A stretch of DNA of 27,235 bases from Escherichia coli (GTDB lineage Bacteria > Pseudomonadota > Gammaproteobacteria > Enterobacterales > Enterobacteriaceae): the NCBI RefSeq assembly GCF_003334385.1, contig NZ_QOWN01000058.1; one strand, 5' to 3'. Of this stretch, positions 2,313 through 2,336 are shown one piece after another. Position numbers and translations under genes: made by a program. Numbering within the stretch: position 1 is the first letter of the stretch; every line of letters starts with the position of its first letter. The notes under the pieces are model-generated. The model had not been told where the DNA came from, did not search any database, and was given only the letters and a program-made list of their open reading frames with translations.

Positions 2313-2336
2313 ACTGCGAGCCCGTAGGCTCGCAGT
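2313..2336 (-). promoter_or_regulatory. Intercistronic GC-rich hairpin between yciG-like and yciF-like genes
   Basis: Near-perfect palindrome ACTGCGAGCC-cgta-GGCTCGCAGT (10-bp stem, 4-nt loop); no U-run follows on the mRNA strand, so it looks like an internal stabiliser or attenuator rather than a terminator. Confidence 0.4.

Follow-up and report, generated by a model that had tools for sequence, protein, structure and literature searches.

The element analysed here lies in the spacer between the yciG-like and yciF-like genes of a yciGFE-katN operon that is read from the minus strand near one end of the window, by which we mean the whole 27,235-nucleotide stretch of Escherichia coli DNA that was analysed (Table 1). 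The first 4 kb of the window are 100% identical to E. coli strain SCU-104, and the operon proved to be a second, horizontally acquired copy of yciGFE-katN that adjoins a lambdoid prophage and is distinct from the core yciGFE operon, the neighbour of which is trpA. It sits between a lambdoid tail-fibre assembly gene, at its katN end, and a region beyond the yciG-like gene that encodes a SAM methyltransferase, OmpT and EnvY. The second copy is present in 345–382 of 5426 complete E. coli genomes, O157:H7 among them, and these same genomes retain the core yciGFE beside trpA. In E. coli and Salmonella, few genes depend on RpoS as strongly as yciGFE(katN) do, and the KatN of the second copy is a reported type VI-secreted catalase in EHEC. 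The counterpart of this locus in strain EDL933 is Z1921–Z1924, in the CP-933X region, where katN-z1922-z1923-z1924 has been called an operon (PMC5363993).

Table 1. Positions of the features discussed in the text, numbered from the first nucleotide of the window.
Feature	Position	Strand	Basis and remarks
Lambdoid tail-fibre assembly gene	1–222		katN end of the operon
Rfam match, IS009	1–182	plus	gathering level, 200.7 bits, 5'-cut; within the tail-fibre assembly gene
katN-like manganese catalase	342–1232	minus	ORF, RefSeq; last gene of the operon
yciE-like gene	1251–1757	minus	ORF, RefSeq; DUF892 / ferritin-like
Hairpin at the yciF-yciE junction	1791–1812	plus	terminator scan
yciF-like gene	1794–2294	minus	ORF, RefSeq, Pfam; DUF892 / ferritin-like; first cistron past the hairpin
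Tail and leader, GAAAACUCUGGAGUGAUU	2295–2312	minus	18 nt; yciF Shine-Dalgarno sequence GGAG at 2303–2300
RNA stem-loop, yciG-yciF spacer	2313–2336	minus	inverted-repeat search and folding
Stem-loop, 3' arm (GGCUCGCAGU)	2322–2313	minus	
Stem-loop, loop (UACG)	2326–2323	minus	
Stem-loop, 5' arm (ACUGCGAGCC)	2336–2327	minus	
Spacer, yciG stop codon to hairpin	2337–2372	minus	36 nt, unstructured; sequence not conserved (flank identity 0.39)
yciG-like gene	2373–2555	minus	ORF, 60 aa; RefSeq WP_000134810.1, general stress protein; Pfam KGG
Promoter-like site, TTGACA, 16 nt, TAGAGT	2615–2642	minus	consensus match only; candidate operon promoter
Methyltransferase-ompT-envY region	3060–6186		
Internal control terminator	22530–22562	plus	perfect 14-bp inverted repeat
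Rfam match, sok antitoxin RNA of a hok/sok module	26842–26997	plus	gathering level, 84.4 bits

The product of the yciG-like gene is a KGG-repeat general stress protein, or hydrophilin, and the 3' end of its cistron is marked by the hairpin described below. Upstream of yciG there is a promoter-like site that may serve the whole operon; the same scan found no consensus match in the yciG-yciF spacer, which therefore holds no candidate promoter for yciF. The start of yciF was placed at a GTG codon (position 2300; MIMQIK...) in the mechanical list of open reading frames, and at the ATG at position 2294 (MQIK...) by RefSeq and in all orthologues; the position of the GGAG Shine-Dalgarno sequence fits the ATG. 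At the other end of yciF, a terminator scan flagged, on the plus strand and hence antisense to the operon, a hairpin of 9 bp with TTTTTATT after it. This hairpin shares positions with the yciF stop codon and the junction with yciE, and could act either as a stop for antisense transcription or as a sense-strand structure at this junction.

The palindrome that a preliminary description had placed between the yciG-like and yciF-like genes is real. On the plus strand it reads ACTGCGAGCC CGTA GGCTCGCAGT, and the repeat search gave arms of 10 nt with 100% complementarity and 4 nt between them; as the genes lie on the minus strand, the mRNA reads ACUGCGAGCC-UACG-GGCUCGCAGU. Seven of the 10 bp in the stem are G-C pairs, so that the stem-loop has the stability, GC content and size of those of intrinsic terminators, for which a stem of about 5–14 bp with a short loop is usual, and the loop together with its closing pair, C(UACG)G, is what we take to be an extra-stable tetraloop of the UNCG type. 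Folded alone, the sense-RNA hairpin had an energy of -20.1 kcal/mol (z = -6.7) and none of 200 shuffled sequences was equally stable. Folding of the intercistronic region, one of the checks proposed in the preliminary description, also returned the hairpin, which was present in both the minimum free energy (MFE) and the centroid structures of 51-nt and 121-nt contexts. In 300 dinucleotide shuffles, perfect 10-bp stems with loops of 3–8 nt arose at a mean of 0.17 per window, and those with at least seven G/C at a mean of 0.043.

The stem begins 36 nt past the yciG stop codon (37 nt had been claimed), a distance that probably lets the hairpin form without hindrance from a ribosome terminating at yciG. 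The stop-to-stem distance is approximately 25–50 nt in all of the orthologues described below, an intercistronic placement that would keep clear of the upstream ribosome. On its other side, the hairpin is separated by 9 nt from the yciF Shine-Dalgarno sequence and by 18 nt from the ATG, and is thus closer to the ribosome-binding site than the 20 nt or so given earlier. The sequence directly past the stem is GAAAACUCU, in agreement with the earlier remark that there is no U-tract. Sequestration of the yciF Shine-Dalgarno sequence was considered and rejected, as the only sign of it was a weak alternative pairing in the MFE structure of the 121-nt fold, which was absent from the centroid.

Comparison with other yciGFE loci, another check that had been proposed, revealed that the palindrome is conserved. 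The core yciG-yciF spacer of E. coli K-12 has the same hairpin, CUGCGGGCC-GUAU-GGCUCGCAG, in a spacer that has otherwise diverged. A scan of YciF loci, with one genome per species, yielded 80 loci, and every enterobacterial locus in which yciG precedes yciF was found to have a hairpin in the spacer. In 17 of them (from Lelliottia, Enterobacter, Citrobacter, Klebsiella oxytoca, Pseudocitrobacter, Leclercia, Trabulsiella and Kosakonia) it was the homologous hairpin. Five enterobacterial loci had a different spacer; in four of these (Enterobacter sp. R1, Dryocola, Superficieibacter and Pseudescherichia) unrelated, longer and strong hairpins of 15–18 bp occupy the same place, and the fifth (Phytobacter) has weaker, AU-rich hairpins only. 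No such hairpin was found in the scanned loci that lack yciG (Xanthomonas, Stenotrophomonas, Bordetella and others). As an additional test set, seven species were picked by YciF protein name alone from a search with the Citrobacter YciF, and all seven (Salmonella enterica, Klebsiella pneumoniae, Citrobacter rodentium, Citrobacter amalonaticus, Raoultella, Enterobacter mori and Citrobacter sedlakii) had the hairpin. It follows yciG in all cases. In C. amalonaticus the hairpin has a long U-tract, and the yciG-yciF pair is succeeded by a cytochrome bd oxidase gene rather than by yciE-katN, indicating that the content of the operon past the hairpin varies.

The homologous sequences were aligned (27 sequences; an earlier version had 20), and the pattern of change was that of a structure maintained in the sense RNA. 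In the 27 sequences, 95.6% of the 270 stem cells were in standard pairs, whereas sliding the 3' partners by one to three columns left only 27–37% paired; none of 500 column shuffles matched the observed pairing or covariation score. Compensatory double changes were seen in 16 cells, distributed over four pairs, and the picture obtained with the earlier alignment was alike. G.U pairs are numerous: the pair formed by alignment columns 18 and 33 is G.U in 15 of the 27 sequences and A-U in the other 12, and that formed by columns 20 and 31 is C-G in 12, U.G in eight and U-A in six. Pairing in the 20-sequence alignment was accordingly 95.3% for the sense RNA and fell to 80.5% when the antisense strand, or a DNA palindrome restricted to Watson-Crick pairs, was considered, because a G.U pair becomes C/A on the other strand. 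Such pairing works in the sense RNA only, which points to the mRNA and argues against a DNA operator.

Within the spacer, it is the stem that is conserved. Its mean identity was 0.83, as against 0.35 at four-fold degenerate sites of yciF, which are saturated, 0.31–0.39 in the flanks of the spacer and 0.37 in the loop. Loops varied but were often of the UNCG (UACG, UUCG, UGCG) or GNRA (GAAA, GCAA, GCGA) types, and had no conserved sequence; this free variation among extra-stable types is a signature of selection for thermodynamic stability, not for loop sequence. Within E. coli, none of the six spacer polymorphisms of the most divergent variant falls in the stem, and in another variant (L093) the outermost A-U pair is changed to G.U. 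Thus, pairing, covariation, the strand bias of the G.U pairs and conservation of the stem at saturated divergence together identify the element as a selected mRNA structure, conserved across enteric bacteria. Three central pairs (C-G, G-C and G-C), together with most of the core, are invariant in the 27 sequences, and at a distance where neutral sites are saturated such constancy of sequence exceeds what a purely structural role would strictly demand.

What follows the stem is much less constant. Tails were scored with a discriminant of the d'Aubenton-Carafa type, which was combined with ViennaRNA energies, so that its zero point is approximate. An internal control terminator from elsewhere in the window gave d = +3.5; this is a perfect inverted repeat, AAACCGCTCTCATC/GATGAGAGCGGTTT, between A- and T-runs, which looks like an intrinsic terminator on the plus strand and has a bidirectional appearance. 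The tail of the window copy, GAAAACUC, has one U in the first 8 nt and gave nT = 0.07 and d = -34.8, the lowest tail score of the 27. With that approximate zero point, d was positive in nine of the 27 (Kosakonia-type sequences, Citrobacter youngae, Citrobacter werkmanii, C. amalonaticus, K. oxytoca and K. pneumoniae), and Salmonella and Leclercia were borderline. At least four U in the first 8 nt were present in 14 of the 27, and two or fewer in seven, including both second-copy variants of E. coli, Raoultella and Pseudocitrobacter. Depending on the measure, therefore, the U-tract of an intrinsic terminator, which typically has four to five U or more within about 8 nt directly past the stem, is found in 9–14 of the 27 orthologues, and it is lacking from the window copy. 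The stem of the window copy is, along with that of Raoultella, among the most stable of the 27. The distance from stem to ATG ranges from 18 to 34 nt, and is shortest in the E. coli copies (18–20 nt vs 22–34 nt elsewhere). Orthologues with U-rich tails tended to have weaker stems (approximately -15 to -16 kcal/mol), and those without a tail to have one or two additional pairs (-19 to -20 kcal/mol), which hints that stem stability and tail may compensate each other. As the hairpin is constant and the U-tract comes and goes, the function that these loci have in common would seem to need the hairpin alone, as a barrier at the 3' end, with co-transcriptional termination presumably superimposed where there is a U-tract.

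Published expression data bear on what such an element does. In stationary-phase RNA-seq of Salmonella 14028, 7567 reads were assigned to yciG, 2204 to yciF, 1677 to yciE and 1826 to katN (PMC5437024), which corresponds to 41,351, 4,372, 3,307 and 2,078 reads per kb, respectively (PMC5437024 supplement). Read density thus drops 9.5-fold at the yciG-yciF junction and only 1.3- and 1.6-fold at the next two, in a library with a possible bias towards small RNAs. The Salmonella spacer has the hairpin CUGCGAGUC-UUCU-GGCUCGCAG, followed by UAUUUUG; since this tail is moderately U-rich, the step-down observed there may reflect termination and not stabilisation. Label-free protein intensities in the same study did not place YciG above YciF, although the two values are poorly comparable, YciG being a 6-kDa protein represented by two peptides (PMC5437024). 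For the copy that is present in the window, microarray data from wild-type EDL933 gave log2 signals of 11.1 for Z1924 (yciG-like), 8.9 for Z1923 and 9.9 for Z1922 (PMC2907692). The yciG-like signal is therefore above those of Z1923 and Z1922, in the same direction as in Salmonella, though signals from different probe sets cannot be compared quantitatively and the paralogues may cross-hybridise. No yciG rows were found in the searchable supplements of the Term-seq, TERMITe, Rend-seq, 3'-UTR valve, SMRT-Cappable-seq and 3'-seq meta-analysis studies. Our literature search found no mention of a stem-loop, terminator or RNase site at yciG, and the papers on CsrA, McbR and H-NS engineering are silent on the yciG-yciF spacer.

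Taking these results together, we think it probable, on balance, that the conserved stem-loop marks the 3' boundary of yciG within the yciGFE-katN mRNA and sets the level of yciG mRNA above that of yciF-yciE-katN. The operon would be transcribed from a promoter upstream of yciG, and the GC-rich hairpin with its UACG tetraloop would fold in the mRNA 36 nt past the yciG stop codon. Transcripts ended or cut further downstream would then be degraded in the 3'-to-5' direction by exonucleases such as PNPase and RNase II, which would stall at the hairpin, so that a stable yciG-only RNA of approximately 0.3 kb would build up over the yciF-yciE-katN part of the message. In relatives with a U-tract the hairpin probably also terminates part of the transcription, as a leaky intrinsic terminator, and in the window copy a minority of polymerases may stop there too; given that this copy has no U-tract, one would expect little co-transcriptional termination and a predominance of the barrier role. 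Which nucleases act, how termination and stabilisation are balanced, and the extension from Salmonella to the second copy of E. coli, which would be expected to behave in a like manner, are the parts of this scheme that we infer. Two of the roles raised in the preliminary description, an RNase-protective stabiliser and a site of differential expression, fit well with the selection on the sense-strand RNA, the constant link to yciG and the 9.5-fold drop in Salmonella.

An alternative, which we regard as rather unlikely, is that the hairpin is a leaky Rho-independent terminator or attenuator that acts co-transcriptionally even in the window copy, giving a yciG-only transcript plus read-through into yciF-yciE-katN. 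Many relatives do have a U-rich tract past the stem (for example UUUUUAAC in Kosakonia, UUAUUUUU in Citrobacter and Klebsiella, and the UAUUUUG of Salmonella), the nine sequences that score above zero resemble the control terminator in this respect, and the step-down in Salmonella is what such a terminator would produce. However, efficient intrinsic termination by E. coli RNA polymerase needs a proximal U-tract, and the tail of the window copy is the worst of the 27. Moreover, the hairpin is equally conserved in the seven lineages whose first 8 nt past the stem contain at most two U, and the function that is conserved must accordingly be independent of the tail. The stem-loop might instead protect a 5' end: following an endonucleolytic cut upstream, it would shield the yciF-yciE-katN mRNA from RNase E/RppH-dependent decay, in the manner of the ompA 5' stem-loop, or, in a variant of this proposal, it would insulate or modulate initiation at yciF. 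With only 9 nt between stem and Shine-Dalgarno sequence, the hairpin does lie at the 5' edge of the yciF ribosome-binding region, 18 nt from the ATG, and a role of this kind could coexist with that of a barrier. Nevertheless, the distance from stem to ATG is not conserved, in Salmonella it is the downstream part of the message that is scarcer, and the U-tracts past the stem in many relatives point to a function at a 3' end; we consider the proposal and its variant, taken jointly, to be improbable.

The invariance of the core raises the question of whether it is recognised by something. A site in the mRNA for a trans-acting factor (an RNA-binding protein, a nuclease or an sRNA) that recognises the GCGRG/CUCGC core, and so regulates read-through, decay or yciF translation, would account for central pairs and a core that have stayed fixed while the yciF four-fold sites and the flanks became saturated, and for a stem identity that is high for a purely structural element. 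Against this, strong but unrelated hairpins are found at the same place in four of the five enterobacterial loci with a different spacer, so that the sequence is not essential, and the loop changes freely from one tetraloop family to another. The window contains no second instance of the motif, E. coli genomes have a single copy, and in viral contigs its frequency away from yciG is roughly that expected by chance. In addition, the invariance can be explained by selection for stability alone, since no viable intermediate lies one step between G-C and C-G, and a change to A-U makes the stem weaker; we therefore give this explanation little credence. In its strongest form, with the core as the site of a dedicated factor that switches read-through or decay at the yciG-yciF junction, the idea is a long shot, but if it were true the factor would let cells uncouple the hydrophilin YciG from YciF, YciE and KatN under particular stresses, and the core operon and the prophage-adjacent copy of EHEC would both have conserved the switch. 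Least probable of all, to the point of being hardly credible, is that the palindrome acts as DNA, as the protein-binding operator of the preliminary description, with a dimeric transcription factor bound to it, or that it is a chance or neutral feature. The DNA palindrome is perfect in the window, and yciGFE loci are known from the literature to be under the control of H-NS and McbR/YncC. In most orthologues, however, the palindrome is imperfect, with G in one arm opposite T in the other in 15 of 27 and the reverse kind in eight, so that two-fold DNA symmetry is broken while sense-RNA pairing is kept through G.U; the loops change in length and in sequence, switching between UNCG and GNRA; and, at 240 nt downstream of the promoter-like site, the palindrome is within the transcription unit. 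Conservation at saturated divergence and the result of the shuffles both exclude a chance origin.

Several known kinds of element were compared with the hairpin and set aside. No Rfam family matched it at the gathering threshold, and the three matches obtained in 2200–2650 with E values up to 10 were spurious and none lay on the hairpin; two gathering-level matches elsewhere in the window are given in Table 1. It is not a REP or other mobile repeat: there is one site in the window, and a 44-nt query was matched at 387 places in 382 E. coli genomes, with a median of one per genome. A degenerate form of the motif was found at 53 places in 2.9 million viral contigs, of which seven lie beside yciG and are related, and the other 46 are unrelated GC-rich DNA. 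One unrelated contig, IMGVR_UViG_3300044557_000138, has the motif three times at an exact spacing of 132 nt in two places (L141, 12–299; L142, 14452–14739), indicative of a tandem repeat that contains a similar palindrome. A relic shared with the paralogue ymdF was rejected, as the 3' flank of ymdF carries an unrelated canonical terminator, and an RNase III site was dismissed since 10 bp is too short for one. RefSeq has no feature beneath the hairpin.

The hairpin is thus an element of an ordinary kind that was previously unannotated, described neither in the literature searched nor by the RefSeq features. It alters no general concept. An internal hairpin would nevertheless explain why the operon does not behave as one unit, with yciG RNA in Salmonella roughly ten-fold above the rest, and it merits annotation, being relevant to reporter fusions, to deletions and to the interpretation of RNA-seq at yciGFE loci. 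The orthologues with and without a U-tract also make up a natural series in which termination can be weighed against RNA stabilisation.

Among known systems, leaky intrinsic terminators within operons share with the yciG hairpin a GC-rich stem of 9–13 bp, a UNCG or GNRA tetraloop, a position just past a stop codon and, in some of the orthologues, a U-rich tract; the difference is that the U-tract is missing from the window copy, Enterobacter, Raoultella and Pseudocitrobacter and that the hairpin is conserved whether or not the tract is present. Dar and Sorek (2018, NAR) are said to have described protective stem-loops that define the mature 3' ends of Rho-terminated or processed E. coli transcripts, and the yciG element is like these in that it lacks a U-tract and would bring exonucleolytic trimming to a halt, but it lies inside an operon, directly before the next ribosome-binding site, and not at the end of a transcription unit. 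Intercistronic stem-loops that stabilise the upstream message, and so give differential expression within operons, were reportedly described by Newbury, Higgins and co-workers (1987); the REP hairpins of the E. coli malE-malF spacer and the hairpins of the Rhodobacter puf operon are of this kind. Unlike a REP, the yciG hairpin is single-copy in each genome, differs in sequence and co-evolves with yciG, and it consists of a single short hairpin and not of a BIME cluster. With the malE-malF and puf stabilisers it has in common a stable, GC-rich structure in the spacer past the first cistron that does not require a U-tract, an upstream message that is, in the Salmonella orthologue, above those of the downstream genes, and a presumed mechanism in which the hairpin is a barrier to 3' exonucleases.
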